From an uncultured Gemmatimonadales bacterium (GTDB lineage Bacteria > Gemmatimonadota > Gemmatimonadetes > Longimicrobiales > RSA9), in the NCBI GenBank assembly GCA_963798085.1, contig CAWCRS010000003.1, forward strand, positions 1,024,001-1,088,000: a stretch of DNA of 64,000 bases, in the 5' to 3' direction. How positions within the stretch are numbered: the stretch's first letter is position 1; each line of letters opens with the position of its first letter. Made by a program: the position numbers and the translations under genes. Of this stretch, positions 173-30,378 are shown one piece after another. The notes beneath the pieces are model-generated. The model did no database searches. It had not been told where the DNA came from and saw only the letters and a list, made by a program, of their open reading frames with translations.

Positions 173-317
173 ACGGACCGTCTTGGCATTCTTGGGTTCC
201 GGCCGCAACACACACAGGGCCGGCTCCCAACGCCTATCGAGTGACCGATTTCCATGCGAAATCCGGTCCCGTCTCTGTCGGCAGCGGCCGGAAGGAAAGA
301 ACGCCAGGCTGGTCCGA
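173..317. repeat. 144-bp dyad element, copy C1 (145 bp; core on minus strand)
   Basis: Left end aCGGACCGTCTTGGCATTCTT-GGG-TTCCGGCCGC; right end GCGGCCGGAA-GGA-AAGAACGCCAGGCTGGTCCGA; core at 233-258, reverse complement CGCATGGAAATCGGTCACTCGATAGG. Confidence 0.9.
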
Positions 318-401
318 CGCGACATATCGGTCAAATCCTGAGGTCGGAGTGCGGACCCGTCACTGGCCGGGCGTCTGACGCTTGTCCGGTTGATACAGCA
401 C

Positions 402-431
402 TTGACAATACAAAGTACTTGTCGCTATCCT
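402..431 (+). promoter_or_regulatory. Putative sigma70 promoter with overlapping inverted-repeat operator
   Basis: TTGACA(402-407)-18 bp-TATCCT(426-431); imperfect palindrome GACAATAC-AAA-GTACTTGTC; AT-rich island just upstream of RBS AGGAG(441-445) and ATG 455. Confidence 0.55.
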
Positions 432-454
432 GCGCCATGCAGGAGCCTGCGAAC

Positions 455-1636
455 ATGAATGACTGCGATGTGATCGTCGTTGGAGCCGGCCTGGCGGGCC
501 TGGTCGCGGCCAGAGACCTCGCCGCTCGCGGACACCGCGTGCGCCTGGTCGACGTCAAGCTTGATCCGGGCAGGAACGTGCACACCACGGGCATTTTCGT
601 ACGCCGCACGCTCGAGGATTTCGCGCTGCCGGCCGAATGCCTGGGTCCTCCGGTGCGACGTGTGGTGCTGCACTCGCCTGCAGGTCGCGAACTCGAGCTG
701 CTCAGCTCGCAGGACGAGTTCCGTGTCGGTCGCATGGGGGCATTGTATCAGCGACTGCTCGCGGAGGGTGAGGCCGCGGGGGTGGAGGTCTCGCTGGGCA
801 CGCGCTTCCACTCCGCGGCGCAGGACGCGCGCGGATCGGCGGTCTGGCTGGAGCGCGGCCACCGTCGCTGGCGGGTGCGCACCCGGTTCCTCATCGGGGC
901 CGATGGTGCGGTGTCCCGCGTCGCCCGACAAATGAACCTCGATCAGAATCACGAGTGGCTGGTGGGTGTCGAGGACGTGTATGAGGGTTCGCTGTACGAA
1001 GGCCCGCCCACCCTGCACTGCTGGCTCGACCCCCGGCTCGCTCCCGGGTACATCGCCTGGGCGACGGACGATGGCGAGACATCGCACGTGGGTGTGGGCG
1101 GATATGCGGGTCGATTCGAGCCGCTGGCGGCGCTGGCGACGCTGCGCAGCCGGCTGCAGGGGCGCTCCCGCCTGCTGTCGCTGCAGCGGGTGGAGCGACG
1201 CGGCGGCCGGATTCCAGTGAACGGCGTGCTGCGGCGAATCGGTAGCCGGCGCGCATTGCTCATCGGAGATGCTGCCGGGGCGGTGTCGCCACTCACAGCA
1301 GGTGGCCTGGACCCCTGCCTGCGTCTGACAGGGGCAGCCGTGATGCTCGTCTCCTCTGTGCTCATGGGCGCGCCGGAGTCCCTGCTCGATGCATATTCGG
1401 GCGTTCCTTTCCAGCGTCATTTTTTCAGGCGACGCATGCTCCGCCGCGCGCTCGCCGCTACTACGCATCCGATCTGGGCAGAGGTCGCCTGCGCCGCCCT
1501 GTCGCTGTGGCCTTTGCGCGAGCTGGCCAGCGGGCTGTTCTTCGGCCGCGGCTCGTTCCCCGACATCGACGTCGCGTTGCCGATCGTGCAGCCGGTGCCT
1601 GCAACGTCGGCAGCGGAGTTGGCGCCGGCCGGCTAG
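455..1636 (+). CDS. FAD/NAD(P)-dependent oxidoreductase, geranylgeranyl reductase-like
   Basis: DVIVVGAGLAG Rossmann motif, IGADG, LIGDAAGxVSPLTAGG; RBS AGGAG. The ORF-track extension to 254 runs through the repeat element and is probably spurious. Confidence 0.85.
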   Translation: MNDCDVIVVGAGLAGLVAARDLAARGHRVRLVDVKLDPGRNVHTTGIFVRRTLEDFALPAECLGPPVRRVVLHSPAGRELELLSSQDEFRVGRMGALYQRLLAEGEAAGVEVSLGTRFHSAAQDARGSAVWLERGHRRWRVRTRFLIGADGAVSRVARQMNLDQNHEWLVGVEDVYEGSLYEGPPTLHCWLDPRLAPGYIAWATDDGETSHVGVGGYAGRFEPLAALATLRSRLQGRSRLLSLQRVERRGGRIPVNGVLRRIGSRRALLIGDAAGAVSPLTAGGLDPCLRLTGAAVMLVSSVLMGAPESLLDAYSGVPFQRHFFRRRMLRRALAATTHPIWAEVACAALSLWPLRELASGLFFGRGSFPDIDVALPIVQPVPATSAAELAPAG

Positions 1637-1653
1637 GCGGGGTCGTCGGACCA

Positions 1654-1883
1654 CCGGACCGTCTTTGCGTTCTTGGGTTTGGCGGATCTTCCCATGCGCG
1701 CGGACTGCCACGGTCGCGAGCTGCCATACGGCTGGCCCGCACCACCATGGAATCGGGCGCACAACGGTTTATTGTTCGCTGGCTTTCGTCCGGCGGGCAG
1801 CATTGTGCCCGCGCATCGGCAGTCCACCCGGGTCGAGAAGATAGTCGGAAGGAGCACAACCCAAGAACGCCAAGACGGTCCGA
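1654..1883. repeat. 230-bp variant of the dyad element with two GGG-type ends
   Basis: cCGGACCGTCTTTGCGTTCTT-GGG-TT at left; AA-CCC-AAGAACGCCAAGACGGTCCGA at right; no recognisable 26-bp core. Confidence 0.8.
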
Positions 1884-1942
1884 TCGCAAGATGCGCATGC
1901 CGCTGCCGATCCTCAGGGACAGCCCCCTCACCGAGGTGCGTC

Positions 1943-3145
1943 ATGCATACCCAGCCCAAACACGCTGTTCGTGCCTCCACGCTGCTCAGCGCCGTTGCCT
2001 GCGCATGCGTTGTCGCGAGCGTCGGATGTACAAAGCAGAAGGCAGCGGCGTCCGAGACTGATCGCGCCACCACATTGCCTGATCCGTCCGGCGCGTGGCG
2101 GCTGACGGCAACCCCGCTCGACATCGGCATTGCCGACGGCGACCCGCACTACCTGCTGCACAACGCCGTCAGTTCTCTGCTGCTGGATGACGGGCGCATC
2201 GTCGTGCTCAACGCGGGCTCACAGGAACTGCGGTTCTACGATACCGGCGGGAAGTTCCTCAACAGCGCCGGGCGCAAGGGGAGCGGCCCGGGAGAATTCC
2301 GCTGGCCCCAGCGCATCTACCTCGCGCATCCGGACACGATCCTGGTGTTCGACGCGGGTACGCAGCGCGAATCGCTGTTCGACACGCAGGGCCGTTTCGT
2401 GCGCGATCAGCCGTGGGTGCCGGCCGACAGCGAGCCCTTCCCGCGCGACGCGTGGCTCTATCGGCACACGCTCGTCGACGGGCCACCCTCACCTGACGCA
2501 CGCGAGTCCGTGCGCCGGCTTCTGAACGCGTTGCCGCCGCTGGAATCGCCGCGGCAGTTCCGGTTCGCGCGCGTGGACACACAGGATCGCGTGTGGGTGC
2601 GGGCGGCCCCGTGGGATCCGCAGCAGAGCACGGGCTGGAGCGTGTATGCGAAGTCGGGCGCGCCGCTCGCGCGTGTCACGACGCCACCGGGCTTCGAGCC
2701 CGAGCACATCGGCCGGGATTTCCTGCTCGGGCGCAGCTACGACTCGGTCAACGTCGAGCACGTCCGGCTGTACCGGCTGAGCGGCCTGCCGGCGAAGGAG
2801 CCGCCGGCCCCCGCGCTCATGGCACAGTCGAGCGCACCGGCGCATCCCGCAGCGGTGCCGGATGCGTTGCGCCGCAACATGCTGAGCGTGGTGCGCAACA
2901 CGATGGCGCAGCAGGAGATCTACTACTCGCTGCCTGAACACGGGTACAGTTACGCCGCGCGCGCGGACCAGCTCGAGTGGCCGGAGGACATGGACGGGCT
3001 GGTACCGAACATCATCGACGGTGGACCCACCGGGTGGACCATGGTGCTGTTTCACGAGCGCGAACCCATCGCCTGCGCCGTCACCGCCGGGATCGCCGGG
3101 CCGGTCGGCTGGCGGCCGGGCATTGCCACCTGCGTGGCCTGGTAA
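1943..3145 (+). CDS. 6-bladed beta-propeller lipoprotein with a C-terminal pilin-head-like domain
   Basis: RBS GAGGT; lipobox-like ASVGC; DGRIVVLNAGSQELRFYD...GRKGSGPGEF propeller signature; C-terminal LRRNMLSVVRNTMAQQEIYYS...GWTM...C...C. Confidence 0.75.
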   Translation: MHTQPKHAVRASTLLSAVACACVVASVGCTKQKAAASETDRATTLPDPSGAWRLTATPLDIGIADGDPHYLLHNAVSSLLLDDGRIVVLNAGSQELRFYDTGGKFLNSAGRKGSGPGEFRWPQRIYLAHPDTILVFDAGTQRESLFDTQGRFVRDQPWVPADSEPFPRDAWLYRHTLVDGPPSPDARESVRRLLNALPPLESPRQFRFARVDTQDRVWVRAAPWDPQQSTGWSVYAKSGAPLARVTTPPGFEPEHIGRDFLLGRSYDSVNVEHVRLYRLSGLPAKEPPAPALMAQSSAPAHPAAVPDALRRNMLSVVRNTMAQQEIYYSLPEHGYSYAARADQLEWPEDMDGLVPNIIDGGPTGWTMVLFHEREPIACAVTAGIAGPVGWRPGIATCVAW

Positions 3146-3837
3146 TCGGCTGTTAGAGCGCTGCCGGCTGCGGCGGCGGACGGAGCAGCCCACAACGCAG
3201 TGAAGGGCGCGCGAACGACTGAACTGTGCGCCGGGCCGGACCAGCCGCTGAGCGGCTGCAACGGTGATCCGCTGCTCAGCGGGTCGCTCGCGTGCCGACC
3301 ACCGCCACAAGCAGCCATAATTGGTGGCCGGCCAGAGAACCCGGAACGTGTGCGCCGGCCCGTTCCATCGAACGCGGCCGGGTCGCACCCAGGGGCGGCC
3401 CTGGGGCCAGCCTTCCTTCAACGCTACGCGAGCACGTTCCAACCGAGCAGCGCATTCTGACCCGACTACCGGGTGCACTCCGCCGCAGCTGCAGGCCGTC
3501 GGCATCGCACATCGTCCCAACAGTGCTGTTAACCCTCTGCCGGCGCGTCTGGTCGGAATGCGGCTGCGGCCGCCGTGCGCCACGCTGGAACGCCCGGCAC
3601 ACTGCGGTGTCGTGCCCACGTTGACCATCTCGCCGGAAGCCGTGCGCTACCGTTGTCCAATCACAGTCCACCGCACGCGACGCCGACGGGCGCTGGCTGG
3701 CGACGTGCGGTCTGCGAGGCGCGGGTGGCATGCAGCGGCGTCGTCGCATACACTCCAGACATGGAGCTTGTCTTTGACCGCGGGCCTGCTCCATGGTTGG
3801 CCACTGCAGCGGATCTGACCTGCATTCGACATCGTGG

Positions 3838-5851
3838 ATGGTCCGGATGCTTCTTCTCCTCGTGCGGATTTCCGTATCGCAGCTGCCGGCGCAGACAGTG
3901 GATCCGGGTGCGTTCGAGCGCGAGCTGGCGGCCGTCACGGATCCGGCGGCGCTGTCACGCGTGGCGCAGGAGCGTGTGGCGACGACATCGTCCGCCAGTG
4001 CCGGCGCGCCTATCGCGCTCGGCCTCGTCCATCTGCGCTGGTGGGAACTCACGCGGAACCGCAAGGAAGCGGACCGGGCGAAGGACGAGTTCAGCAAGGC
4101 GAGAGCGATCGAAGCCGACAATGCGTGGGCGGTCTTCGGCTACGGGCTCAGCCTGGCGCACGGGCCGGATGTGCGCTCGGACGGGCCGGCGCTGGCGGCG
4201 ACAGGTCGTTCGTGGGCGAGGGAGCTGGGTCTGGATGCGCGCTCGCGGGCGCGGCGCGCGATGGAGCAGGCGCTGGCGCTGGACGCAGGCTTCAATCGCG
4301 CGGCTGAAGTGCTGGGGAGCTGGCGCTGCAGTCGCGCCGCGCGGACGAGCTCGCGAGAGCGAAGGACGCGTTGCTGGTAGTCCTCGCGCAGCAGCGTGCC
4401 ACGGACGGCACACTGCGCGTACTGTCGCGTGTGGCCAGTTCCCTGGACGATCAGGAGACGGCGCTGCGCGTTGCCCAACTGGCTGTTAGAAGGCATCCCG
4501 GTGCCGCCAACCTGCACGCATTGAGTGTGGCCCTGCTGCGTACGCCCGGGCGCGAGCAATCCCGTGCGGACGGGTACTTCCAGGTGCTGGATGCGCTGAC
4601 ACCCGGTGTGGCGGCGCAGCTGTGGTCGGAGATCGGGCCCATTGCCAATGCGGAAGAACAGAAACGCTGGCAGGCGGGCGATCTCGCTGCGCGAGGCGCG
4701 CTGCTGCGGAAATTCTGGGACCTGCGCGCCGGCCTCGCCGCGGAAGCGGTAGCGGAGCGGCTGGCATAGCATTATCGCCGGCTCGAGGTCGTGCTGCAGA
4801 AGAACGTTCGGGTCGCGGATGGGCTGGCAGCCGGGCATTGGCACGCTCAAGGAGAAGATGCCGGAAGCACCCTTCGACGAGCGCGGTGGTGTGTACCTGC
4901 ACAACGGGCCGCCGGACCGCATCATTCGCACGCTGGACATGAAGTTCGCCACGGAGGCGTGCAGCACAGGCATGGGTCCAGCCGTCTACAACGAGTCGTG
5001 GCTGTATCATTGCCTGGAAGAGCGGCCTCGCCTGATCAACTTCGTGCGCTGCAACGGCCTGCTCGGCTACGTCGTGCCGTACACCACGCCGTGCGGTGCG
5101 TCGGGGGACGCACGCTATCAGACGGATCGTCAATTCATTGACGATGCGCTCTGCAGCTGGCGCACACCGGAGCGCACACTCGAGTTCGCGCGCGAGCACA
5201 TGGCGGTGGACACCGATGCTCCTGATTTTTCCGCCGCGACTCCGTTCGCGTGGGACATGTTCGCGTTCCGCGGCAGCACCGGGCAGAGGGATCTCTCGGT
5301 GCCCGTGGGCGTGGCCGGCGATTCCCTGCACGAAGACGTGCTGGCCGACGGGCGGCGAGGCCATCGCCTGCGGCTCTCGCTCTTCGTGGTCGATACCGCG
5401 GCGCAGCGCGTCTCGCACGCGGACACGGTGGAATCGTTCGTCGGCAGGAGCGCGCGGCGAGCTGGTGATCGCGTACGTGAACCTGTCCGTACCGCCGATG
5501 GCTGATGCTGTGCAGCGCATTGTGGTACGGGAGGCCGGTCGGCCGGAACGCGGCGCACTGCACGGTGAGCACGTGCGGGTGCCCGATTATGGCGGCGACT
5601 CGCTGATGGTGAGCAGCATTGTGCTCGCCCTGCCAGGCGACGGCGGCAACTGGAAGCGTGGTGCAACGACGCTCACCGTGGTGCCCGCAGGCGAATTCGG
5701 CGGTGGTCAGTTCCGCGTCTTCCATGAGGTCTGCAATCTTCCGAAGGACTCGCGGTATGAGACCGAAATCGAGATCCAGCGAATGGATGGCGCCCGTGAG
5801 TCGCTGCGCTTCGTTTCCAGGGCGTGGCGCAGCCCGAGGGCCGCGGCGTAA
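3838..5851 (+). pseudogene. GWxTD-domain-like secreted protein, broken into several frames
   Basis: Signal peptide, TPR-like helices, FWDLR...ERLA*HYRRL, FDERGGVYLHNGPPD, NESWLY; in-frame TAG at 4767-4769 and frame changes near ~4320, ~4810 and ~5455. Confidence 0.7.
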
Positions 5852-6063
5852 TCCACGAACTGCGCTCGATCGATACCGGCCTCGAATCCGGCCGGTATCG
5901 ACTGCACGTCCGTGTCCGCAATCTCCAGACGAATGCGGTCGCTGCCAGCGAACGGCGGAACGCCGTGACGGCGGCATCCCGCTGACGGGTCCAACCGGGC
6001 AACGGCTTGAGCCGGAGCCCGCGAGGCGCCAGTATGTCGCACCCTTCACGACGGATGGTCGAC

Positions 6064-7392: not shown

Positions 7393-7500
7393 TACCTGCT
7401 CCGGCCTCGCATAACTGGCTGTTAGAACAGAATCCGGCGTCCCCCGCCGGGTGGGGACGGCCTCAGCAGGAAGGGAGAGGCGCCGCCGCGCGACCCGGCG

Positions 7501-8322: not shown

Positions 8323-8325
8323 CTG

Positions 8326-8469
8326 TCGGACCGGGTTCGAACTCTTTCCTTCCGGCCGCACCTGCCATGATCATGCGCCTGGCGCGCATGGCAACGCACG
8401 ATCTGCGGTCTGCCCGAGCCAGCGCCATGCGTGTACGTAGCGCAACGCAAGAATGCCAAGACGGTCCGA
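8326..8469. repeat. 144-bp dyad element, copy C2 (left end degenerate)
   Basis: TCGGACCGggTTcGaacTCTT-TCC-TTCCGGCCGC ... AA-CGC-AAGAATGCCAAGACGGTCCGA; CGCATG at offset 59 (8385). Confidence 0.8.
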
Positions 8470-8474
8470 TTGGC

Positions 8475-9002: not shown

Positions 9003-9014
9003 GCGCGCCCCGGG

Positions 9015-13738: not shown

Positions 13739-16402
13739 TCAGTCGGAGCGCAACGCGGCAATGGCCTCCACTTTCGCCGCGCGCAGCGCGGGCAGTGCGC
13801 TCGCCAGCACGGCGGCCAGCAGCAGCAGCAGCGTCACGGTCGCCAGCGTCAGCGGGTCGGTGGCAGTAACACCGAACAGCAGATTATCGAGCACGCGCGT
13901 GCTGGCCAGTGCGGCCAGCGTGCCCAGCGCCACGCCCGCCACAGTCAACCGCACACCCTCACCCACGACCATGCGCACCAGGCCGGCGGCGGTGGCGCCC
14001 AGCGCAGTGCGCACGCCCAGCTCGCGCGTGCGCTGCGCCACCGTGTACGAGACGAGACCGTAGATGCCCACCGCGCCCAGCAGCAGGGCACAGAGCGCAA
14101 GGATGCCGAGCAGCGATGTGGCCGAGCGACGCTGCTCGCCGATGCTGCGTGCGGCCAGATCGGCCAGCGTCGTAACCTGGAATACGGGCAGGTCCGGATC
14201 GAGCGCGTGCACCTGATTGCGCACCAGCGGGAGCATGCGCAGCGGCTCGGCCGCGCGCAGCACGACCGTCAGCTGGCTGATGGGCAGACCCGAAGTCAGG
14301 CCGCCGCTGGCCCAGGGCCAGTAGAGTGTGGGTCGGGACGGGTGTTCCGGCCCGAACTCGCTCAGGTCGCTCACCACGCCCACGATCTCGAACGTCGCGC
14401 CGCCATCAGGGAAGCCCACACGACGGCCCAGTGCATCGCCCTCAGGGAACAGCAGGCGGGCTAACGCCTCGCTAACCACCGCCACACCGGCGCCGCGGCG
14501 CATGTCCGCGTCCTGCAGGAGCCGTCCGGAGCGCAGACGGATGCCGACGGCGGCAAAGAATCCCGGCGTCGCCTCACGCATTTCCACGAGCGTGGGCCGC
14601 ACATCCCGGCCGGGCAGCACGATTTCACCATTGGTGCCGCCGGCCAGCGGCCGCCGGGTGGTCGCACCCACCGCTTCCACGCCCGGTGTCGCGGCCAGGG
14701 AGCCGAGGAGCGAATTGTAAAAGCCTGTTATCGCCTCGGCGGAGCCATAGCGGGCGGCAGGCAGTCCAATGTCGAAGATGAGCGCGCCGCGCGCGCCAAT
14801 GCCGAGGTCGATACGCGACAGCTGGCGCGTCGTGCGCAGCAGCAGGCCGGCGCCCGCAGCCAGCATCACGGCCAACGCGATTTCCGTCACGACCAGCCCC
14901 CGCCGCATGCCCTGCCGGCCGCCCGCAGTACCGCGACCACCGGCGCGCAGGCCGCCGCGCAAAGCGCCGCCACGCAGCTGCAGCGCGGGCAACAGTCCGA
15001 CCAGCAGCCCGGCGAGCAGGGAGAGCAGCGCGGCGAACAGCAGCACGACGCCATCCATGCGGATGGCGTCCGCGCGCGGAATCGTGCGCGGGTACAGGCG
15101 CAGCAACAGGCGAGTTGCCCACAGCGAGAACAGCAATCCACCCAGGCCGCCGGCCAGCGCGAGCACCAGGCTCTCGGCCACGAAGTGGCGCAGGATCCGC
15201 AAACGTCCGGCGCCCAGAGCCGCGCGCACCGCCAGCTCGTGCCGCCGGTCCTGCGTGCGCGCAATGGCCAGGCCCGCAACGTTGACGCACGCAATGAGCA
15301 GCAGCAGCAGTGTGCCGCCCGCGAACAGATTCAGCAGGCGACGACTCCTCGCCACGCTCCACTCGCTGAATGAGCCGACCGCGCTGCTCCAGCCTTCGTT
15401 CGCCTGCGGATAATCCGCCGCCAGCCGTGCGAACAGCGTTTCCAGTTCAGACCTGCCCTGCTCGACCGTCACACCAGGCCGCAGCCGGCCGACACCATTG
15501 ATCCTGCGGGCGCGACGCGTGGACCGCAGCTGCGCATCCCAGTGGAACGGCGTCCAGAGGCGAGGCGACGAGGGAAAGGCGAGGGCGCGCGGTAACACGC
15601 CAATAACAAGGTGCGGCACCTGGTCCACGATGACGCTATGGCCGACCACCGATGCATCCGCACCGAACTGCTCGCGCCACAATTCCTCGCTCAACAGCAC
15701 CACCGGCTGGGCGCCCGGCAGGTCATCGGCGGCAGCGAGGTCACGGCCGAGCAGCGGGTGCACACCGAGCAGCCCGAAGAAGCCGGGCGACACGTTCATG
15801 CCCAGGATTCGCTGCGGGCCGAGCGCGCCGGTCACGTTGTACTGAGTGTAGCCGAACGCTTCCAGACCGGCGAACTGATGCGCACGCTCGCGGAGATCCA
15901 GGAAGTTGGGCACCGACATGGATGAATAGGCGACCGGCGAATCCTTCAGGCCGCGATCGCCGATGCGCACGAGCTGCTCGGGGTGCGCGTACGGCAGCGG
16001 CCGCAGAAGCGCACCCCACAACACCGTGAAGATGGCCGTGCCCGCGCCCGTGCCGAGTGCGAGGGTGCCGGCCGCCGCCAGCGTGTACGCGGGTCGGCGC
16101 AGCAGCGCCCGCGCCGCCTGCCGCGCATCCAGAAGCCACGCGTCCAGCATGATGTCACTCCGTTTGCGTTTTTCGTGCGGCAACACCGCATTGCGGCGCA
16201 GCCAGCGCCAGGCGCGCGCGCCGAGATAACCGGCTGTCAGGCTGATCGCGACGGCGAGGAACCAGAGCGGCCGCAGCGCGAGCGGGCGGAAACGGGTGTA
16301 GTCCTCGTGCAGATCGCCCAGAATGCTGTCCGCGAGTGTCGCATCACGAGGCAGACTCCAGCGCACCAGCGCCAGCAGCCAGCGCGGCGGTCCAGCACTC
16401 AC
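13739..16402 (-). CDS. ADOP-type duplicated orphan ABC permease (MacB_PCD/FtsX x2)
   Basis: TLALGTGAGTAIF, LLLIACVNVA, ELAVRAALGA, ELGVRTALGA, PALRAAKV...ALRSD; GTG start overlaps the padR stop (GTGA). Confidence 0.92.
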   Translation of the reverse strand: MSAGPPRWLLALVRWSLPRDATLADSILGDLHEDYTRFRPLALRPLWFLAVAISLTAGYLGARAWRWLRRNAVLPHEKRKRSDIMLDAWLLDARQAARALLRRPAYTLAAAGTLALGTGAGTAIFTVLWGALLRPLPYAHPEQLVRIGDRGLKDSPVAYSSMSVPNFLDLRERAHQFAGLEAFGYTQYNVTGALGPQRILGMNVSPGFFGLLGVHPLLGRDLAAADDLPGAQPVVLLSEELWREQFGADASVVGHSVIVDQVPHLVIGVLPRALAFPSSPRLWTPFHWDAQLRSTRRARRINGVGRLRPGVTVEQGRSELETLFARLAADYPQANEGWSSAVGSFSEWSVARSRRLLNLFAGGTLLLLLIACVNVAGLAIARTQDRRHELAVRAALGAGRLRILRHFVAESLVLALAGGLGGLLFSLWATRLLLRLYPRTIPRADAIRMDGVVLLFAALLSLLAGLLVGLLPALQLRGGALRGGLRAGGRGTAGGRQGMRRGLVVTEIALAVMLAAGAGLLLRTTRQLSRIDLGIGARGALIFDIGLPAARYGSAEAITGFYNSLLGSLAATPGVEAVGATTRRPLAGGTNGEIVLPGRDVRPTLVEMREATPGFFAAVGIRLRSGRLLQDADMRRGAGVAVVSEALARLLFPEGDALGRRVGFPDGGATFEIVGVVSDLSEFGPEHPSRPTLYWPWASGGLTSGLPISQLTVVLRAAEPLRMLPLVRNQVHALDPDLPVFQVTTLADLAARSIGEQRRSATSLLGILALCALLLGAVGIYGLVSYTVAQRTRELGVRTALGATAAGLVRMVVGEGVRLTVAGVALGTLAALASTRVLDNLLFGVTATDPLTLATVTLLLLLAAVLASALPALRAAKVEAIAALRSD

Positions 16403-16890: not shown

Positions 16891-17007
16891 GAGGACGCGA
16901 GAGAGTGAGGACGCGAGAGTGAGGACGCGAGAGTGAGGACGCGAGAGTGAGGACGCAAGGAAGCGCGCGGACCAGGGCCCAAAGGCGGGCGAGAGTGAGG
17001 ACGCGAG
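16891..17007 (+). repeat. 14-bp tandem repeat GAGGACGCGAGAGT (~4.5 copies plus one dispersed copy) in a G-rich tract
   Basis: Units at 16891, 16907, 16921, 16935, partial at 16949; another copy at ~16989-17007. Confidence 0.9.
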
Positions 17008-17196
17008 GGAGGGTTGGACCAGGGGGTGGCAGTGGAGGGCGCGGAGGAGTCGGAGAACGACTGTTCTCACACGGTGGACACAGGGTCAACGGAGGGGCGT
17101 GTTTCCTTGGAGGGTGAGGGGGAATGAGGTGAGCGGGAATGAGGTGGGGGTCTGGAGGGAGGTCTGTGGTTTCGAGTGTCGGGGCGGATGCCGATA

Positions 17197-17340
17197 TCGG
17201 ACCGTCTTGGCGTTCTTTCCTTATGTCGACTATCGCTATCCAGCGGGCCCGCGCGGGAATCCAAAGTGGCAGGTCGATTGGCAACGGAGTCGGTGTCATG
17301 CTGGAGCACGCCACAACGCAAGAACGCCAAGACGGTCCGA
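17197..17340. repeat. 144-bp dyad element, copy C3
   Basis: TCGGACCGTCTTGGCGTTCTT-TCC-TT ... AA-CGC-AAGAACGCCAAGACGGTCCGA (perfect 21-bp inverted repeat), flanked by TA on both sides. Confidence 0.92.
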
Positions 17341-17562: not shown

Positions 17563-20032
17563 ATGGGTGAGTTGCTGGCGGATGTCCGGTATGCGCTGCG
17601 CACGATGCGGCGGAGTCCGGGCTTTGCTGTGGTCGCGGTACTGACGCTGGCGCTGGGCATTGGCGCGAACAGCGCGATCTTCAGTGTGGTGAACGGTGTC
17701 GTGCTGAAGCCGCTGCCGTACGCGGTACCGGACCGGCTGGTATCGCTGGCCACTCAGTTTCCCAGCCTGGGTTTCGATCGCTTCTGGTTTTCGCCGCCGG
17801 AGTATTTCGAGCTGGGGGAGTGGAGCCACTCGCTGGAGACGATCGGCGGGTACCGCACGGGCATTCTCTAGTGTGGGTGGCATTGAGCGGCCGGTGCGCG
17901 TGACATTGGCGATTGCGACGGCGGGGTTCTTCCGCACGCTCGGTGTGAGTGCCGAGCTGGGGCGAGCTTTCACGCGGGAAGAGGACATGCCTAACGCGGC
18001 GCCAGTGGTGGTGCTGTCGCACGAGCTGTGGCAGAGCGCGTTCGCGGGGGACCGCGCGATCGTGGGCCAGAACGCAATGGTGAACGGTGTGCAGCGCCAG
18101 GTCGTGGGCGTGATGCCGCGCGGCTTCGACATTGAGGATGCAGGCGTGCAGCTGTGGGTGCCGACGGGTCTGGATCCGGCGCAGCGCACGAACAATCGCG
18201 GCAGTCATTTCCTGAACGTGGTGGGTCGCCTGCGGGCGGGCAGCAGCCTGGAGCAGGCGAGGACGGAGATGGAGGCGTTGCTGCAGCGGTGGCACAACGA
18301 GCTGGGCGGTACGACGCACGCGCCTGATCCCGAGCGCCACCGCATTGTGATCAATTCGCTGCGCGGCGAGCTGATCGGGCCGGTGCGGCGAGCGCTCTTC
18401 CTGCTGCTGGGCGCAGTGGGCTTTGTGTTGCTCATCGCGTGCGCGAACATGGCGAATCTGCAGCTGGCGAGGGCGGAGTCACGTCAGACGGAGATCGCGG
18501 TGCGCGCGGCCATGGGCGCGGGCCGGCAGCGGCTGGTACGGCAGTTCCTGACGGAAGCGATGTGTTATGCGCTGGTGGGCGGCGCTGTGGGTCTGGGTAT
18601 GGCGGTGCTGGGCACGAAGCTGCTGCTGGCCGGGAGCGCGCACAGTGTGCCGCGCACGGCGGATATCAGCCTGGATGGCCGGGTGGTGCTGTTCACGCTG
18701 GCGGTGTCACTGCTGACCGGCATCCTGTTCGGGCTGGCGCCGCTGCTCAATCTCACGAATCGCAGCACCAACTCGGCATTGCGTGAGGGTGGCGCACGCG
18801 CCACGGCGAGCCGCGGTCGGCAGCGGCTGCGCCGGCTGCTGGTGGTGTCGGAGACTGCGCTCGCTGTGGTGCTGGCGGTGGGCTCGGCGCTGATGCTGCG
18901 CAGTTTTGCGGCGCTGCAGAGCGTGGATCCGGGATTCGACCCGCACAACCTGCTGACATTCGGGTTGTATCTGCCCGGCACCGCCTACCCCCACAACGAG
19001 GAGCAGGCCGGATTCTACACGCGGCTGGAGAGTCAGCTGAAGGCGCTGCCAGCAGTGACCGGTGTGGCCGCCATGAGCGGGCTGCCGCCACGACGGAATG
19101 TGAACGCCAACGACATGGAGTTCGAGGGCTACGTGTTCGTGCCCAACTCGGGCAAGCCCGTGCCCAACGCGGACTACTGGCAGTACATAACAGCGGATTA
19201 TCTGGAGACGATGCAGATCCCGCTGGTGTCGGGTCGTGGGTTCCGCCCGGGCGATGATGCGACGGCGCCGCCGGTGGCGCTCATCAACGAGCGCCTGGCG
19301 AAGCTGTTCTATGCGGGCCAGGATCCCATCGGCCGGCGGCTGCGACCCGGATTCGGTCCCAACAACACGCCGCCGCCCTGGTTCACCATTGTGGGTGTGG
19401 TGAAGGACGTGAAGCAGGGCGGCCTGGAGCAGCAGGCCGGCAGCGAGGTGTATTTCCACTACCCGCAGGTGGGGCCGATCATCGGTATTCCACGCACCAT
19501 GAACGTCGTGGTGCGCACGACACGCCCGCCGCTCGGGCTGCTGGACGCAGTGCGGGCCGAGGTGCGCGCCATCGATCCGCAGCTGCCAATGTCGAGCCCC
19601 GGTGACATGGAATCCGTGCTGGGCGCTTCCATCGCGCGGCCCCGCTTCCTGACACTGCTGTTAGGCATCTTCGCGGCTGTCGCGCTTTCGCTCGCGGCCG
19701 TGGGCACGTACGGCGTGATGTCCTACTCGGTAACGCAGCGCCGGCTGGAGCTGGGCGTGCGCATGGCGCTGGGCGCGGGTGCGCGTGGCGTGCTGGGTCT
19801 CGTTCTGGGACAGGGGCTGGCCGTGGCCGGCGTCGGCCTGCTGCTCGGTGTGGGCGGTTCCTTCGCACTCAGCCGGCTGCTGCGCTCGCTGCTCTTCGAG
19901 GTGAAGACCACGGACGCCATCGCCTTCATCACCGCGCCTGCATTACTGGGCATCGTGGCCCTCGCCGCGTGCGCGATTCCCGCGTTGCGCGCGGCGAGGC
20001 TGGATCCCGCGAAAGTGCTGCGCCGGGAATAG
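17563..20032 (+). CDS. ADOP-type duplicated ABC permease with one frameshift near 17865
   Basis: [43 protein letters not shown]; continues in the frame of ORF 17873-20032 to [17 protein letters not shown]. Confidence 0.9.
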
Positions 20033-20264: not shown

Positions 20265-20273
20265 TGCTATAAT
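20265..20273 (+). promoter_or_regulatory. Consensus extended -10 element TGCTATAAT
   Basis: Perfect TGnTATAAT in a GC-rich intergenic region ~265 bp upstream of CDS 20540. Confidence 0.45.
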
Positions 20274-21358: not shown

Positions 21359-21371
21359 GTCAGTTCTTCGT

Positions 21372-21402
21372 CCGGGGGCCCTTCCACGCGGAGGGCTCCC
21401 GG
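21372..21402 (+). terminator. GC-rich stem-loop after CDS 20540-21358
   Basis: CCGGGGGCCCTTCC-ACGC-GGAGGGCTCCCGG; no clear U-tract. Confidence 0.45.
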
Positions 21403-21919: not shown

Positions 21920-23170
<1,251 letters not shown>

Positions 23171-23194
23171 GCCACTAACGCGGCGTCAGGCGGG

Positions 23195-24595: not shown

Positions 24596-24805
24596 GGGCG
24601 CGCCTCGGCGTGACCGTTGTCGTGAGCGGATCGCCTGTGCGGGTCAGGCGACGATGGGTGGTCCGGGTTGCCTGAGACTATCGAGCCAACGGCCCACCGC
24701 AAGATCGCTGCAGTGGAACGCAGGCGGGGCGCTCACAGCCAGCACCACCGCCGCGAACCGCACGTGGCTGTGTCGCCTGCAACAGGCTGTTCTCCGACGA
24801 GCCGG

Positions 24806-25999
24806 TCAGCGCCTCACGAGGGGGTACAGCGCGACGACCTCACGATCCACGTCATCCTGGGTCACGCCGAGGATGTAATCGGCTCCGATCTCGAGGATGC
24901 GGAGAGCGGGCGTGTGCACGCGGCCGAGCGGCTCTCCGGCCGCCGAGAGGACTTCCCAGATGAGGCGAGCCGCATCGGCAGGATCCTCGCGGCCGACCCA
25001 CACTCTGTTCAGCCGATCCACCTGCAGGGCGGCGAAAGCCGGATGCGTCGGGCGATTCGGCAACTCGGCATAGAATCGCTCCCACATCTGCGCGCGCTCA
25101 CCGCTTCCCATGCGACGCAGGTGGTCCTGTTTCCACGCGCGCAGCTCGGCATCGGTGGTGGCGGGTGCGGGAGCGCGCGAACGGATGATCGTCGTGCGCC
25201 GGCCGGTCGCGTCGAAGGTGGACACCTGCCACGTGTCGCTGGCGCCAATGACAATCGTGTTCGCAGCCGCGGAAGCGAAGACATTGCGCCCGAAGGGAAT
25301 TTCCGAGCGCAGCGCCGCGTCGCCGACGCGGCCGAAGTACTGCTCGCTGCCCGGGAACGCGGCGATGGAGTCGAGGCGGGCACCCCCACGATCGAACAGG
25401 AAGTAGGGCACCGTGTCGCGCCGCTCACCGCGCGTGAAGATGCGATTGAAGCCCGGGACCACGAGCAGGGTCCCGTTGTCCAGCGTACCGACCGGCTCGG
25501 GGTATCCGGCATCGGGACTGGGCGGCTGCATGACGGACGCCCCCGACAGCTGTCCGTCGCCATTGAAGCGCGAGAGGCGGCGCGTCATGACGTCGTAGAC
25601 GAGGCTGGTATCGCCGGGCAGAACCTGCAGCGAGAACATGCCGCGGAATTCACCCGGTCCGCTGCCCGAGCGGCCGGTCGTCAGCGCGAGTGTGCCATCC
25701 GGCCGGAAGAAGCGCAGCTCGCCGCTCGTGCCATTGCCCAGCACCACGCGCCCGTCGGAGAGCACGCCGCCGCCGCGCACGCCGAACAGGTCGTGCCCGG
25801 GCCGCGCGTCCTGCCCACCGATCGTGAGGCGAGGCGAAGCGCCCAGGGTCCAGTCGGGAAGCGGCAGTGTCGCGATGTTCTCGATCTCGACGATGCGCAC
25901 CCCGGCACTGTCGCGCGTGACCGGCCCTGCGGAGGGTCTGGCTGTTTCGCCGCACGCCGCGAGCGAGAGCACGACCACGAGCACACCGGGCATTCGCAT
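24806..25999 (-). CDS. 6-bladed beta-propeller lipoprotein (paralog of 1943-3145)
   Basis: Lipobox LAAC; TRDSAGVRIVE; DGRVVLGNGTSGELRFF...GRSGSGPGEF; LQVDRLNRVWV. Confidence 0.85.
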   Translation of the reverse strand: MRMPGVLVVVLSLAACGETARPSAGPVTRDSAGVRIVEIENIATLPLPDWTLGASPRLTIGGQDARPGHDLFGVRGGGVLSDGRVVLGNGTSGELRFFRPDGTLALTTGRSGSGPGEFRGMFSLQVLPGDTSLVYDVMTRRLSRFNGDGQLSGASVMQPPSPDAGYPEPVGTLDNGTLLVVPGFNRIFTRGERRDTVPYFLFDRGGARLDSIAAFPGSEQYFGRVGDAALRSEIPFGRNVFASAAANTIVIGASDTWQVSTFDATGRRTTIIRSRAPAPATTDAELRAWKQDHLRRMGSGERAQMWERFYAELPNRPTHPAFAALQVDRLNRVWVGREDPADAARLIWEVLSAAGEPLGRVHTPALRILEIGADYILGVTQDDVDREVVALYPLVRR

Positions 26000-26337
26000 G
26001 GTTCGCGTATCGATTGCGCGTTTCACACCGGCCGCCATTTCTCTCGCGCACGGCATGGTAGTCGAACGACGGCACCGAAGGGCGCGCGCTCGCGGACGCG
26101 TGTCATGATCTGCATCGCTGCGTGCCAGCCTCCAGATCAGGTGCATTCGCCGGAGATTACGTGAGCAACTGTGACCCGGGTTTCGCCGAGCCAACCGCGC
26201 CGACATTAGGACAACGCCCGCATCTCGCGCGTTGCTGTCACGAAGAAGGGCTTCGCGTTGATCAAGGCCCAGACTTCCCGTGAAACCCGATCCACTCCGT
26301 ATCCCGGCCCGGTCCCGAACACCCTGGACTGGTACGC

Positions 26338-26401
26338 TCGGACCGTGCTGGCAAGTGGTCGGACCGACCCGGGCAATGGGCTGACCGACGTGGGCAAGTG
26401 G
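26338..26401 (+). repeat. Three degenerate 21-22-bp tandem copies of the element end motif
   Basis: TCGGACCGTGCTGGCAAGTGG | TCGGACCGACCCGGGCAATGG | GCTGACCGACGTGGGCAAGTGG, directly abutting copy C4. Confidence 0.7.
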
Positions 26402-26544
26402 CCGGACCGTCTTGGCGTTCTTTCCTTTCGACCGCACAGGAAATCGGCATGACACATTGTCGCATGAAAAGCGTCAATTGATATCTGAGCGGGTCTACTG
26501 CATGGGTGGACCGGCCGGAACGCAAGAACGCCAACCCGGTCCGA
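26402..26544. repeat. 144-bp dyad element, copy C4 (143 bp; 1-nt deletion in core)
   Basis: cCGGACCGTCTTGGCGTTCTT-TCC-TT ... CGCATGAAAAGCG-TCAATTGATATC ... AA-CGC-AAGAACGCCAACCCGGTCCGA. Confidence 0.92.
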
Positions 26545-26674
26545 TACGATATGTCGATGCGTTCAGCATCGGACCGGGCTCTCATTCTGCGATGCGACTC
26601 GCCCAAGGACTTGTGGGCCGCGCCAGCTTCCGGGCCTGAGCTTCCGGACTGCACTGAATCTCCGGATCCTGCCT

Positions 26675-27099
26675 TGCCGGACTGCTCTGAACTTCCGGAC
26701 CTGAACAGCGGGACTGCTCTGAACCTCCGGACCGTGTTGGCATTCTTGCGTTACGGGTCGATCGGCCATGCCCTCGACCCATCATCGCATGCGAAATGGT
26801 CAATCGATACGTCAGCGGGCCGTGAGCATGGGCGGGTGCGCCGAAAGGAAAGAATGCCAAACTGGTCCGGAAGCGCATGCCGGGTCCAGTCCAAAGAGCC
26901 GAGCTGCCGGACTGCTCTGAACTTGCGGACCTGAACAGCGGGACTGCTCTGAACCTCCGGACCGTGTTGGCATTCTTGCGTTACGGGTCGATCGGCCATG
27001 CCCTCGACCCATCATCGCATGCGAAACGGTCAATCGATACGTCAGCGGGCCGTGAGCATGGGCGGGTGCGCCGAAAGGAAAGAATGCCAAGCTGGTCCG
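26675..27099 (+). repeat. 195-bp direct duplication (period 230 bp) containing copies C5 and C6
   Basis: 26675-26869 vs 26905-27099, 3 mismatches counted by eye, 35-bp unique spacer. Confidence 0.9.
26727..26870. repeat. 144-bp dyad element, copy C5
   Basis: cCGGACCGTGTTGGCATTCTT-GCG-TT ... CGCATGCGAAATGGTCAATCGATACG ... AA-GGA-AAGAATGCCAAACTGGTCCGG. Confidence 0.92.
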
Positions 27100-27100
27100 A
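26957..27100. repeat. 144-bp dyad element, copy C6
   Basis: Near-identical to C5; ends AA-GGA-AAGAATGCCAAGCTGGTCCGA. Confidence 0.92.
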
Positions 27101-27178
27101 CAGGGTCCAATGTGAAAGTGTCGTAAAGCCGGGACGGCGTCCGTTGCCGCTCGGGCTGCCCGGACATAGGGTCGGTGG

Positions 27179-29116
27179 ATGACTCCAGTGCGGATGGGTC
27201 CGGGCGACCGTGCCCGGCAGGGTCGGCTGATCGGTTTCGTGGCGCCGCTCGTGCTGGTGGTGGTCTTTGCGGCGGCGCTCGCGTTCCAGGCGCTGGATGC
27301 GACGCGCTCGCACCGCGAGGCGGTGGCGCATACGCTGCGCGACTACGCTGGCTTCGCGGCGTTCATCGTGACGAACGCGGCGCGCCAGGAGCTGGAGCGA
27401 CGGCTCACGTACGCGTTCAGTCCCATCTTCCGCTATCAGCCGGAGTCGGGCGAGCCGCTGCCACCGGCCTCGGCGCTGGGCCAGGAGCGCGTGGAAGCGC
27501 AGCGTTGTGCGACGGCGGGTGTGCCCGATCCGACCTACTATCGCCTGGATCTTTCGAACAATTCATTAACCACAGCCGGGCCGGCGCCTTCCGCCAGCAC
27601 GCTGCAATGGCTGGCGGACACGCTGCGGGTCGCAGCGCCCGCGTTCCACGGCGATTGGGCGTTCGCACACATCTTCGGCGATGCGCACGCGGCGGCGCTC
27701 ATCGCCTACCGCGTGCTGCACGACTCCGCCGGGCACGCGCTGGCGGTGTACGCCAAGACCAGCTGCTTCGCGCTGCCGCGGCAGTCGCTTTTCGCGGCGG
27801 CGCTGCAGGCGGGACCGGCACTGCCTCCGTTTCTAACGGGCGGGCTGGCTAACGATTCATTGCTATCCGTGCGCGTGACCGATCCGCACGGAGACTCCAT
27901 CTGGGCATCCTCCCCGCAATACCAGGGCGGGCCCTCGGGCGAGGCAGGTTCGGCGTGGCCGCAGTCGGGTGGGCTGCGGCTGGCTGTGACCATCCGGCCC
28001 GACATCGCCAAACAGCTGGTTATCGGCGGCATGCCGCCGTCGCGGCTGCCCATGGCGGTGCTGCTGCTGGCGCTCAGCATTCTGTTTGCAGGCTACGCGG
28101 TATTGCAGTTGCGCCGGGAGCAGGAGCTGCTGCGGCTGCGTGAGCAGTTCGTGTCCAACGTCTCGCACGAGTTGCGCACGCCGCTGCAGCAGATCCTCAT
28201 GTTCGCCGAGCTGCTGAACATGGACGCCCTGCCCTCCGATGCGGAGCGCAGGCACTCAATGCAGGTAGTGGAGAGGGAGACGCGTCGTCTCATCCAGCTG
28301 GTGGAGAATGTGCTCCAGTTTTCGCGCGCGACGCAGGGCGAGGACACACTGTCCGAGCAGGTGGTGGCGCTCGAGCCGCTGGCGAGGGAGACCCTGCAGG
28401 CGTTCGCGCCACTGGCCCGTGCGGGCAATGCGCGGCTCACACTGCGCATCGAGCGCGACCACTCCCGGCGAGACAACCGCACTAACGATTGCGTTAGAGA
28501 CATTCCGATGACAGTGACGCTGCGCGACAGCGACGCTGCGGGGCACGACGCAGCTCGATCCGCGACCGTGAACAAACAGCAGGTTGCCGCGGATCACGGC
28601 GCTGAACAGGCGGCAGCCGGAGGAGGCGCCGAGGCGGAATCGTCGCCTGCCAGATTCGTTGCCGGGCGTGAGGCCTCGAGCCCGCGAAGTGATCAGGCGG
28701 GATCCGCCGCGGACCAGGACACCGCGGCTCTGGTGGCAGCGGGCCCGTTCGCGATTGCCGATGCAGCGGCCTTGCGACGCGTGCTGCTAAATCTGCTGGA
28801 CAATGCGGTGAAGTACGGACCTGCGAATCAGACCGTAACGGTAACGCTGACAGCGAATGCCGAGCACGCGACACTGATTGTTGATGACGAAGGTCCGGGA
28901 ATCCCGGCGTCCGAGCGCGAGCGCGTGTGGCAGGCGTTCCAGCGGCTGGCGCGCGAGGAAGGCGCGGCCATTGCCGGCAGCGGCATGGGCCTGGCCATTG
29001 TGCACGACCTGGTGCAGCGCATGGGCGGCGCGGCGCGCATTGAGCAGGCACCCGCAGGCGGGGCGCGTTTCATTGTCGAGCTGCGAGCGGCAGCCGGCGG
29101 CGGTGCAACGCCATGA
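27179..29116 (+). CDS. Membrane sensor histidine kinase with a ~95-aa low-complexity insertion
   Basis: Two TM segments; FVSNVSHELRTPL (H-box), LLNLLDNAVKY (N-box), DDEGPGI, GSGMGLAIV. Confidence 0.93.
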   Translation: MTPVRMGPGDRARQGRLIGFVAPLVLVVVFAAALAFQALDATRSHREAVAHTLRDYAGFAAFIVTNAARQELERRLTYAFSPIFRYQPESGEPLPPASALGQERVEAQRCATAGVPDPTYYRLDLSNNSLTTAGPAPSASTLQWLADTLRVAAPAFHGDWAFAHIFGDAHAAALIAYRVLHDSAGHALAVYAKTSCFALPRQSLFAAALQAGPALPPFLTGGLANDSLLSVRVTDPHGDSIWASSPQYQGGPSGEAGSAWPQSGGLRLAVTIRPDIAKQLVIGGMPPSRLPMAVLLLALSILFAGYAVLQLRREQELLRLREQFVSNVSHELRTPLQQILMFAELLNMDALPSDAERRHSMQVVERETRRLIQLVENVLQFSRATQGEDTLSEQVVALEPLARETLQAFAPLARAGNARLTLRIERDHSRRDNRTNDCVRDIPMTVTLRDSDAAGHDAARSATVNKQQVAADHGAEQAAAGGGAEAESSPARFVAGREASSPRSDQAGSAADQDTAALVAAGPFAIADAAALRRVLLNLLDNAVKYGPANQTVTVTLTANAEHATLIVDDEGPGIPASERERVWQAFQRLAREEGAAIAGSGMGLAIVHDLVQRMGGAARIEQAPAGGARFIVELRAAAGGGATP

Positions 29117-29844
29117 GCGTGCGCATTCTGCTCATCGAAGACAACGCCGATCTCGCACTCGGGCTGCGTCGCAGCCTGGAGCTGGAGGGCTACGATGTGC
29201 ACGTGTCGCCCGAGGGCGGGGGCGCGCTCGAGCGGTTGCGGCGCGAGGCGTGGGACCTCGTCGTGCTCGATCTGATGCTGCCGGGAATCAGCGGGTTCCA
29301 GGTGTTGCGCGCCATGCGTGCCGAAGGCAACGAGACGCCGGTGCTGATCCTCAGTGCCCGTGGCGAAGAAGCCGACAAGGTACAAGGCTTCCGCCTGGGC
29401 GCGGACAACTACGCGGTCAAGCCTATCGGCGTGTTAGAGCTGCTGGCGCGCGTGGAAGCCATGCTGCGCCGCGCGCGCCTGGCAGAAGCGAGCCAGCCCG
29501 TGAGGCAGGTATTCCGCTTCGGCGATGTGCGCGTCGACACCGGCACGCGTTCCGTGCAGCGCGACGGTGCACTGCTCGAGCTGAGTCCCAAGGAGTTCGA
29601 CCTGCTGCTCTACCTGCTGCGCAGTGGTGGCGTGGTCGTGAGCCGCGGCGAGCTGCTGCGCGAGGTGTGGGGCTACAAGCGCGCCGTGCCCACGCGGACG
29701 GTCGACGCGCACATCGCGCTGCTGCGCGGCAAGCTGGAAGCCGACCCATCCCGCCCGAAGTACCTGCTGACCGCACGCAAGGCCGGCTACCGGCTGGACG
29801 TTTCCGCCGCCCAGACTGACAGCACGTTGCGGCTCCCGGGCTGA
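29113..29844 (+). CDS. OmpR/PhoB family response regulator
   Basis: ILLIEDN, LDLMLP, KPIG, KEFDLL, TRTVDAHIALLRGKLE; ATGA overlap with the kinase. Confidence 0.96.
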   Translation: MSVRILLIEDNADLALGLRRSLELEGYDVHVSPEGGGALERLRREAWDLVVLDLMLPGISGFQVLRAMRAEGNETPVLILSARGEEADKVQGFRLGADNYAVKPIGVLELLARVEAMLRRARLAEASQPVRQVFRFGDVRVDTGTRSVQRDGALLELSPKEFDLLLYLLRSGGVVVSRGELLREVWGYKRAVPTRTVDAHIALLRGKLEADPSRPKYLLTARKAGYRLDVSAAQTDSTLRLPG

Positions 29845-29909
29845 CAGGTTACACCGGACCGGGACGTTCGCTGCACCCGGTTCGTGTGGTGTGGTTTGGC
29901 CAGCTTTCG

Positions 29910-30053
29910 TCGGACCGTCCTGGCATTCTTGGGTTCCGGCCGCAACGGCAATGGTCGCGACCCAGACACGCATGAATTGTGGTCAATCGATACGTGCCTG
30001 ATGTGCCGGCATTGGTGCCTGGGACGAAACGAAAGAATGCCAAGACGGTCCGA
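29910..30053. repeat. 144-bp dyad element, copy C7
   Basis: TCGGACCGTCCTGGCATTCTT-GGG-TTCCGGCCGC ... CGCATGAATTGTGGTCAATCGATACG ... AA-CGA-AAGAATGCCAAGACGGTCCGA. Confidence 0.92.
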
Positions 30054-30234
30054 AAGCGATCCCCCCAACCCCGGGCGCAGCGCCGTCGCCGAGCCCGCGC
30101 CTCGGGCAAGGCACAGGTGGCAGGCCCGTGCCCAAGCCCGGCGGGGTGCCCGGCGCCTACCCCGGTCCGGCGCGGTCGCCGAGCCCGTGCCGCGCCATTC
30201 GACATCGCCAGGCCAGCCGCACTTCATCAGCGGA

Positions 30235-30378
30235 TCGGACCGTCCTGGCATTCTTGGGTTCCGGCCGCTACCGCCATGGCGGTGACCCGCGCAGGTATGA
30301 AAAGTGGTCAATCAATGCCTGGCTGCGCCGTCGGCATATGCGCGCGTGACGGAAGGAAAGAATGCCAAGACGGTCCGA
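30235..30378. repeat. 144-bp dyad element, copy C8 (overlaps the 3' end of the cytochrome-TPR gene)
   Basis: TCGGACCGTCCTGGCATTCTT-GGG-TTCCGGCCGC ... GGTATGAAAAGTGGTCAATCAATGCC ... AA-GGA-AAGAATGCCAAGACGGTCCGA. Confidence 0.92.

Follow-up and report, generated by a model that had tools for sequence, protein, structure and literature searches.

The 64,000-nucleotide stretch of an uncultured Gemmatimonadales bacterium analysed here (henceforth termed the window; contig CAWCRS010000003.1, G000:C3:1024001-1088000, where G000 is the source genome) contains a family of short dyad-symmetric elements, each a dimer of inward-facing terminal inverted repeats (TIRs). The end-to-end lengths of these TIR dimers are confined to whole helical turns of about 10.55 bp, over a range of ca. 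124–311 bp. Their partner is almost certainly the genome's single Y1/HUH gene, which encodes a transposase of the TIRYT type. Our best explanation, to which we assign a probability of roughly 0.6, is that the elements are non-autonomous TIR dimers whose two ends TIRYT would bridge on duplex DNA across a pre-bent loop. Judged from sequence patterns, a bent or looped double-stranded state of the elements is highly probable in itself; that such a loop is the synaptic complex through which TIRYT mobilises them is the reading we favour, with less assurance.

A helical ladder of element lengths

A weight matrix built from 16 window ends and applied genome-wide at a threshold of 15 bits recovered 227 ends in the source genome and 3 in a reversed/complemented control. 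The ends form 95 inward-facing pairs and 37 solo ends, and the same TIRs thus occur dispersed as singles, dimers or groups, a TIRtron feature. A first-pass annotation, made from the window alone, had described a family of fixed length. This does not hold genome-wide: only 48 of the 95 pairs measure 143–146 bp (the 144 class), 46 range from 127 to 311 bp and one, the autonomous copy, spans 1056 bp. The length analysis omits the 48 pairs of the 144 class, the TIRtron of 1056 bp and two pairs, of 179 and 195 bp, whose ends are duplicated internally. Scanned for periods of 5–25 bp, the remaining 44 lengths show a best period of 10.6 bp (R 0.75, Rayleigh p 1.6e-11) with a bootstrap interval of 10.46–10.68, and none of 2000 jittered nulls reaches the observed R. 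Restricted to the 31 unique lengths, the test gives p 5e-7; 144 sits on the same ladder with a residual of -1.1.

The ladder recurs in seven other genomes whose TIRs differ. With period and phase fixed beforehand, 42 of 49 pairs, chosen by eye from pattern matches in related and hence not independent genomes, lie within 2.5 bp of the phase found in the source genome, and length peaks appear at 134–136, 144–147, 154–156, 167, 177 and 187 bp. Without the unpublished genome G016, 22 of 26 pairs remain in phase (p 6e-7), with a free best period of 10.5. Rows whose two ends differ in the TIR middle were dropped by eye as chance matches, a pair with a doubled end in G005 (124 bp, in phase) was omitted from the 49, and a long-gap pattern applied to G016/G210 had one match, which was dropped as probably two successive elements. 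The lengths of 24 TIRtrons, with weak and period-dependent periodicity (p 0.002–0.4), were not used. Slippage of 10–11-bp tandem units was considered as a source of the ladder, and no such unit was found. In genome G605, a classical GGGGTCAG-type TIR family (L110) provides ca. five informative pairs of about 221, 294, 295, 310 and 339 bp, too few for phasing; this family also has stacked ends and two 60-bp pairs.

Interiors are phased to the ends

The interiors of the long elements are nearly unrelated in sequence, with 3 weak BLAST pairs among elements over 146 bp. In 40 long elements, A/T runs from position 46 inward are nonetheless phased to the ends at 10.5–10.6 bp (R 0.31, 0/5000 permutations), in the same phase as the conserved TT at 25–26 and the A-run at 67–69, with G/C runs half a turn off. 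Antiphase of A/T and G/C runs is characteristic of DNA with a planar bend. The signal remains after masking a recurrent promoter-like motif and when limited to positions beyond 70, whereas R is 0.026 for 814 host intergenic control regions and at most 0.12 in subsets of 40 of them. In 17 elements of other genomes, of which G016 contributes one, the phase is the same (4.2 vs 4.4; 0/5000), and a crude whole-element bend index is significant for the long elements (0.75 vs 0.49). Recurring motifs at mirror positions, pointed out in the first-pass annotation, are evident as information peaks at TT 25–26, AT 42–43, G(A)CCC 50–54 and AT 63–64 in 76 half-sites from 38 de-duplicated copies of 143–146 bp. 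Since interiors are phased to the ends, the best reading of these motifs is a code for bending or contact.

The promoter-like motif, CCATGG-N19-TAnnnT, is frequent in elements of at least 218 bp, where it lies at whole-turn offsets of 91–94, 103 and 113. The 18 kb of elements contain 13 occurrences, the remainder of the genome 17. By crude gene calls of our own, on which all gene contexts given here rest, just 7 of the 16 motifs listed aim at a neighbour on the same strand. CCATGG was rejected as a host -35 consensus, since it is not enriched before 388 intergenic -10-like sites.

A TIRYT as the very probable partner

The 1056-bp pair at G000:C8:104626-105681, the only one over 311 bp, encloses an intact open reading frame (ORF). 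Its product matches Pfam Y1_Tnp (E 5.7e-8) and, at 80.9 against a cut-off of 80, NCBIfam NF047646 (REP-associated tyrosine transposase), and is the sole Y1 match in the genome. As this pair encloses the sole Y1/HUH gene, we regard the family as the set of non-autonomous TIR dimers that belongs to a TIRtron. A search for a transposase flanked by the same ends, proposed in the first-pass annotation, thus found its object on another contig. The protein has the motifs NHFH, YVHLNP and SS (as WSSH), in agreement with the subclass 2.1 patterns NH[YF]H or NHVH, Y[IV]HLNP and SS (PMC6006769, Table 1), and H59, H61, Y118 and N122 are invariant across 19 homologues. The C-terminal helix-turn-helix (HTH) expected of the group (Bac_DnaA_C, HTH_23 or HTH_28) is detected as HTH_23 in 12 of the 19 members at E values of at most 0.05 (best 6e-6) and as HTH_28 in 6. 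An AlphaFold model (predicted local distance difference test, pLDDT, 85) has a helical C-terminal domain and finds its best fold match in Escherichia coli RAYT 4er8, followed by ISDra2 and IS608 TnpA. Motifs and C-terminal HTH together place the predicted protein in TnpA-Y1 subclass 2.1.2.

Among 72 genomes of the bacterial family, 34 have a TIRYT homologue, and with the same query none of 328 genomes of two sister families has one; the congener G001 (91% complete) has neither the TIRYT gene nor the repeat. By a fixed rule, a TIR pair surrounds the gene at 21 of 29 homologue loci (including the unpublished G150), mostly beginning 75–77 nt before the ATG. TIRs at these loci have a terminal CGGAC and motifs near 31, 42 and 52 in common and differ at positions 8–26, so that TIR sequences change with the local TIRYT across the family. 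Miniatures and the local TIRtron have an identical TIR middle in G210, G028, G061, G193 and G089, and G016 contains several TIRYTs, each with its own end type. TIRtrons without short pairs, by the patterns used, are found in G027 and G108. A contig scan with a single TIRYT protein returned one weak locus that looks unrelated and was not used.

The elements of the window

All eight copies described in the first-pass annotation are present at their coordinates and lengths, with a ninth, 230-bp element that it had missed. In the list below, C1 to C8 denote the eight copies.

173..317, minus strand (core A on the minus strand): C1, 145-bp TIR dimer; core 21/26
1654..1883, plus strand: ninth element, 230-bp long-class TIR dimer; ladder residual +0.1; begins 17 nt past the stop of the upstream plus-strand gene
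1745..1775, plus strand: long-class promoter-like motif CCATGG-N19-TAnnnT (putative function), at offset 92 from the left end of the ninth element; aims at a called gene at 2075-3145
8326..8469, plus strand: C2, 144-bp TIR dimer; left TIR degenerate, only half of the core (10/26); occupies the gap between two minus-strand genes
17197..17340, plus strand: C3, 144-bp TIR dimer; TIRs 24/26 complementary, arms 12/35
26402..26544, plus strand: C4, 143-bp TIR dimer
26727..26870, plus strand: C5, 144-bp TIR dimer; first copy in a local 230-bp tandem duplication (98%) that takes in flank
26957..27100, plus strand: C6, 144-bp TIR dimer; tandem copy of C5, 99% identical
29910..30053, plus strand: C7, 144-bp TIR dimer; between convergent response-regulator and cytochrome-c genes; the orthologous site of the congener G001 has no intergenic DNA
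30235..30378, plus strand: C8, 144-bp TIR dimer; a minus-strand cytochrome-c ORF crosses the right end, with its stop at 30308

A 20-nt end pattern has 17 matches in the window where 0.02 are expected by chance, which bears out the inverted conserved ends. Of the centred pseudo-palindromic core, the position stands: a 26-bp core fits best at offset 59 in 8/8 copies, with 10–24 of 26 matches. The fit is lowest in C2 (10/26), and the core is self-complementary at only 12/26. A suggested TA flank, found at 5 of the 16 ends of the eight copies, is not consistent.

The ORF crossed by C8, a cytochrome-c/TPR gene at 30308-31831 (minus strand), thereby has a new C-terminus; its G001 orthologue has a different end, which overlaps the stop of the regulator. 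C3 lies between two of three duplicated permeases of the ADOP family (13739-16402, 17873-20032 and 42223-44895). A 14-bp tandem repeat at 16898-17015, ca. 180 nt before C3, consists of three near-identical and two diverged copies and is unrelated to the TIRs.

Probably duplex rather than hairpin DNA

The first-pass annotation had proposed a platform of double-stranded DNA (dsDNA) over an RNA or single-stranded DNA (ssDNA) hairpin, and four lines of evidence agree with it: uncovaried arms, ends without hairpins, the ladder and the phased interiors. Arms at 27–61 are complementary at 12–20 of 35 positions across the eight copies, in accord with the poor pairing noted earlier (ca. 14/35 in C3, where we count 12/35). 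Within-copy arm complementarity is 0.434 vs 0.467 for permuted partners, which indicates arms without covariation, and left- and right-arm distances are uncorrelated (rho -0.12), a result silent on arm shuffling or inversion. Single ends fold more weakly than shuffles (minimum free energy -1.3 vs -2.0 kcal/mol). Of the features of repetitive extragenic palindromic (REP) sequences and REPINs, the ends contain no GTAG-type foot, and the doublets do not form long hairpins with paired arms, as arm pairing is at or below that of permuted partners. A covariance-model scan of the window against Rfam, suggested at the outset as a search for a known RNA, gave 0 matches at gathering score.

Mobility and genomic distribution

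One dispersed pair of elements, 392 kb apart, is 92% identical, with ca. 9 nt of one flank in common and unrelated wider flanks. Eight other near-identical pairs represent local tandem duplications. Many copies have pile-ups of partial end repeats next to them. Runs of such partial end copies, with periods of ca. 28–41 bp, lie beside elements at G000:C3:87000-87170, C3:256049-256133, C12:92516-92723 and C9:94631-94664, and are possibly scars of nicking and resealing.

Comparison of orthologous loci, also proposed in the first-pass annotation, revealed presence and absence of elements, with no clean empty site. At the C7/C8 site, the genes of G001 abut without a spacer. An element just after a stop codon in G028 is absent in G190, which has 17 unrelated nt in its place; as the G028 interior has no counterpart there, the interior travels with the ends. 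Within one genus, three species have elements of 177, 178 and 178 bp at one site and a fourth has none; the three have different TIR middles and interiors 28–38% identical ungapped. The exact end of the source genome was found in 0 of 60 relatives and in 0 stretches of a metagenome collection, so that no strain-level empty site is at hand. Contigs from three sequencing runs of one sample give no joint at an element end among the matches listed, and carry no weight here. Ends abut called stop codons at 16 of 80 long-class and 5 of 76 144-class ends.

Two loci with additional genes were noted. In G193 (L063:1803-3289, G193:C88), elements of 177 and 167 bp bracket an extra, cargo-like gene, Rieske oxygenase-like from its translation, that is missing at that site in G035 and G111. 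In G061 (L060:1023-2344, G061:C15), an extra gene and a 145-bp element are absent from the orthologous site in G005, G144 and G086.

Members of the 144 class cluster on the contig that carries dnaA, two parS-like sites and the skew minimum (23/38 vs 6.7 expected) and are missing from 1.9 Mb taken as terminus-side (0/38 vs 11.6 expected). The long class, with 11/40 on the dnaA contig vs 7.1 expected, is not concentrated. The 144-bp class may be one successful rung that spread around oriC. A second strong DnaA-family match lies far from oriC at G000:C7:1021291-1022775, with two DnaA-like stretches in one 570-amino-acid frame.

A model and its weighing

In the mechanism that we propose, TIRYT would bind the 26-bp TIRs on double-stranded DNA, probably via the HTH at its C-terminus and perhaps aided by a bending protein of the host, and would join the two ends across a small pre-bent loop of about 12–29 turns. 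The HUH/Tyr118 site would then nick, presumably near the terminal CGGACC, and the element would be copied out and re-inserted without target duplication through a loop, circle or inversion intermediate. Only copies with ends on the same helical face and a rightly bending interior would be replicated or kept. Selection for the bridged complex would explain why ends, length phase and bending code are conserved while other bases drift; conservation in place and the origin bias leave room for a host role.

Several observations weigh against this model. Characterised Y1 enzymes act on ssDNA (PMC6006769, PMC8266576; here and below, papers are cited from partial texts). The HTH of the source genome's own TIRYT has an E value of 0.03, below Pfam cut-offs, and its ORF has a low-confidence tail through the right TIR. 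G215 (59% complete) has pairs and no TIRYT match. One dispersed near-identical pair against eight local tandem duplications indicates that copying to new sites is rare, and the G028/G190 site, with its 17 unrelated nt, fixes neither cut nor target. The orthologous 177–178-bp elements, kept with dissimilar interiors, imply selection in place and not only on transposition. Finally, the 144 class gives a non-significant crude bend index (0.55 vs 0.50), and lengths of 160–214 bp in other genomes fit the ladder less well (6/11 in phase, p 0.03).

Alternatively, the elements might be domesticated looping sites, at which TIRYT or a host protein bridges the TIRs in small loops that serve the host by repressing or insulating an enclosed promoter or by shaping the origin region, with phase selected in place and not via mobility. 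The three orthologous elements with turned-over interiors, the abundance and offsets of the promoter-like motif and the origin-proximal 144 class argue for such a role, which we nevertheless consider unlikely: the motif mostly does not face a same-strand neighbour, elements and TIRYT are missing in the congener and in 38 of the 72 family genomes, the catalytic residues are invariant, and gene dosage or local hopping could give the origin bias. Less probable still is a minicircle, a variant of our best explanation with another intermediate, in which excision or copying of the element yields a covalently closed duplex circle, its length near whole turns and its interior pre-curved. The period of 10.46–10.68 matches relaxed B-DNA, and, measured from a single end, the A/T runs keep one continuous phase throughout the interior (best period 10.6, R 0.28). 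Against this, no junction or circle was observed, the loop accounts for the same numbers, and mean lengths of ca. 13.7 turns would require a junction adjustment of 2–3 bp for closure.

The first-pass annotation had also raised a wrap site, for instance for gyrase. Here the 144-bp class would be selected as a symmetric platform for gyrase or another wrapping protein, in keeping with its central core and phased arms and, by size and periodicity alone, with the E. coli gyrase motif of 130 bp, symmetric with a 10.75-bp GC period (PMC6379681). A fixed footprint does not yield rungs from 124 to 311 bp, and the readout of gyrase would not produce base-specific ends that track each genome's TIRYT; we therefore regard this origin of the class as very improbable, while gyrase may be an accessory binder of it. 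A histone wrap was rejected for want of any histone-fold match (PF00808 in 0/1 genome, PF09123 in 0/73 genomes). An ordinary miniature inverted-repeat transposable element (MITE) or a REPIN-like ssDNA or RNA hairpin with a neutrally decayed interior could draw on the 26-bp inverted ends, which are able to pair as a panhandle. However, complementarity between the two ends of a copy does not exceed that of permuted partners (0.82 vs 0.84; 0.90 vs 0.90), and this, with the ladder and the phased interiors, largely refutes that reading, to which we give almost no weight; nor are there Rfam matches, a 10–11-bp tandem unit or duplications of at least 3 bp. Flanking 3-mers are duplicated at 0/38 (144 class) and 1/40 sites (long class), and none longer; 2-mers at 7/38 vs 3.4 in the null and 2/40 vs 2.1, respectively. 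The initial idea of a non-autonomous element mobilised in trans thus survives without its IS630/TA component, given the lack of target duplication and the Y1/HUH partner on another contig; the only adjacent pair long enough for a gene holds the Y1 gene, and no search aimed at IS630 genes was made.

Relation to known systems

Although the first-pass annotation recognised no described family, TIRtrons, TIRYTs and TIR repeat families, including TIR dimers, were named in 2013 by Di Nocera et al. (PMC3733652). Quentin et al. (2018; PMC6006769) equate their TnpA-Y1 subclass 2.1.2 with these TIRYTs, and RAYT Group 1 of Bertels et al. (2017; PMC5581495) is a close known kind. The present system resembles TIRtrons in its Y1/HUH gene between long TIRs, its NHFH, YVHLNP and SS motifs, its C-terminal HTH, and its moderately abundant dispersed TIRs, many as dimers, without a GTAG REP. 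It differs in its ends, which run (T/C)CGGACC(G/A), start CGGACC and, by our own reading, agree at 5 of 8 positions with the GGGGWSAS of most described TIRs; as PMC3733652 lists TIRs unrelated to GGGGWSAS, that motif is not obligatory. Every obligatory feature that could be tested is present, and on this sequence evidence the elements are assigned to the TIRtron/TIRYT kind. In the parts cited, PMC3733652, PMC6006769 and PMC5581495 describe the superfamily as ssDNA-processing and are silent on dimer lengths, helical phasing, a bending code, an internal promoter-like motif and origin bias. A bacterial report of phased TIR-dimer lengths was not found in literature mostly exclusive of subscription titles, and Figure 9 and the supplements of PMC3733652, outside that reach, could list spacings; helical phasing thus apparently has been unreported so far.

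REPINs of the REP-RAYT system (groups 2 and 3; PMC8266576) are likewise non-autonomous inverted doublets long kept by a single-copy Y1 enzyme, with tandem pile-ups at their ends, but the elements here have no GTAG foot, single-end hairpin or arm pairing, and show a 10.6-bp ladder with phased interiors. By analogy, the elements would work like the internal eliminated sequences (IESs) of Paramecium (PiggyMac; PMC3464196, PMC3408717) in their helical sizing: these, too, are natural short elements sized by the DNA helical repeat, and their 10-bp size periodicity is read as dsDNA looping in the transpososome. Helical-twist behaviour of IS1 and IS50 mini-transposons is cited in the same papers. IESs, however, are eukaryotic, TA-bounded, DDE-dependent and excised in development, whereas the elements here are bacterial, with specific 26-bp TIRs, no TA duplication, an HUH enzyme and an interior that is phased as well. 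The gyrase motif, BIME-2 and the Mu strong gyrase site (SGS; PMC6379681) offer symmetric stretches of 130–145 bp with helically periodic AT/GC; the gyrase motif has a single size and a degenerate sequence, unlike the many lengths and transposase-tied specific ends described here.

Significance

TIRYTs are the largest RAYT-like group, with 493 proteins in 14.9% of species (PMC6006769, Table 1). Their mechanism is not given in the papers found, as far as cited here, and PMC3733652 names TIRYT-TIR binding and cutting assays as future work; characterised Y1/HUH relatives, such as the IS200 and RAYT enzymes, recognise hairpins in single-stranded DNA. The helical ladder of end spacings and the bend-phased interiors are a hallmark of bridging between two sites on duplex DNA. 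They make the mode of action of TIRYT directly testable and point to the positions that the protein probably reads. At about even odds, we suggest that subclass-2.1 TIRYTs of this clade may have given up the recognition of ssDNA hairpins for a synapsis of duplex ends guided by the HTH. The miniatures would then be a natural helical-twist experiment: selection for a tight dsDNA loop or minicircle would act on their length and on a nucleosome-like bending code, and the host may have retained them as loops that enclose promoters or lie in the origin region. If true, this would widen the known chemistry of HUH transposition and might offer a small end-specific looping or recombination tool; for the Y1 family, it would mean a duplex, loop-dependent route of transposition and a bacterial counterpart of the helical sizing of Paramecium IESs.

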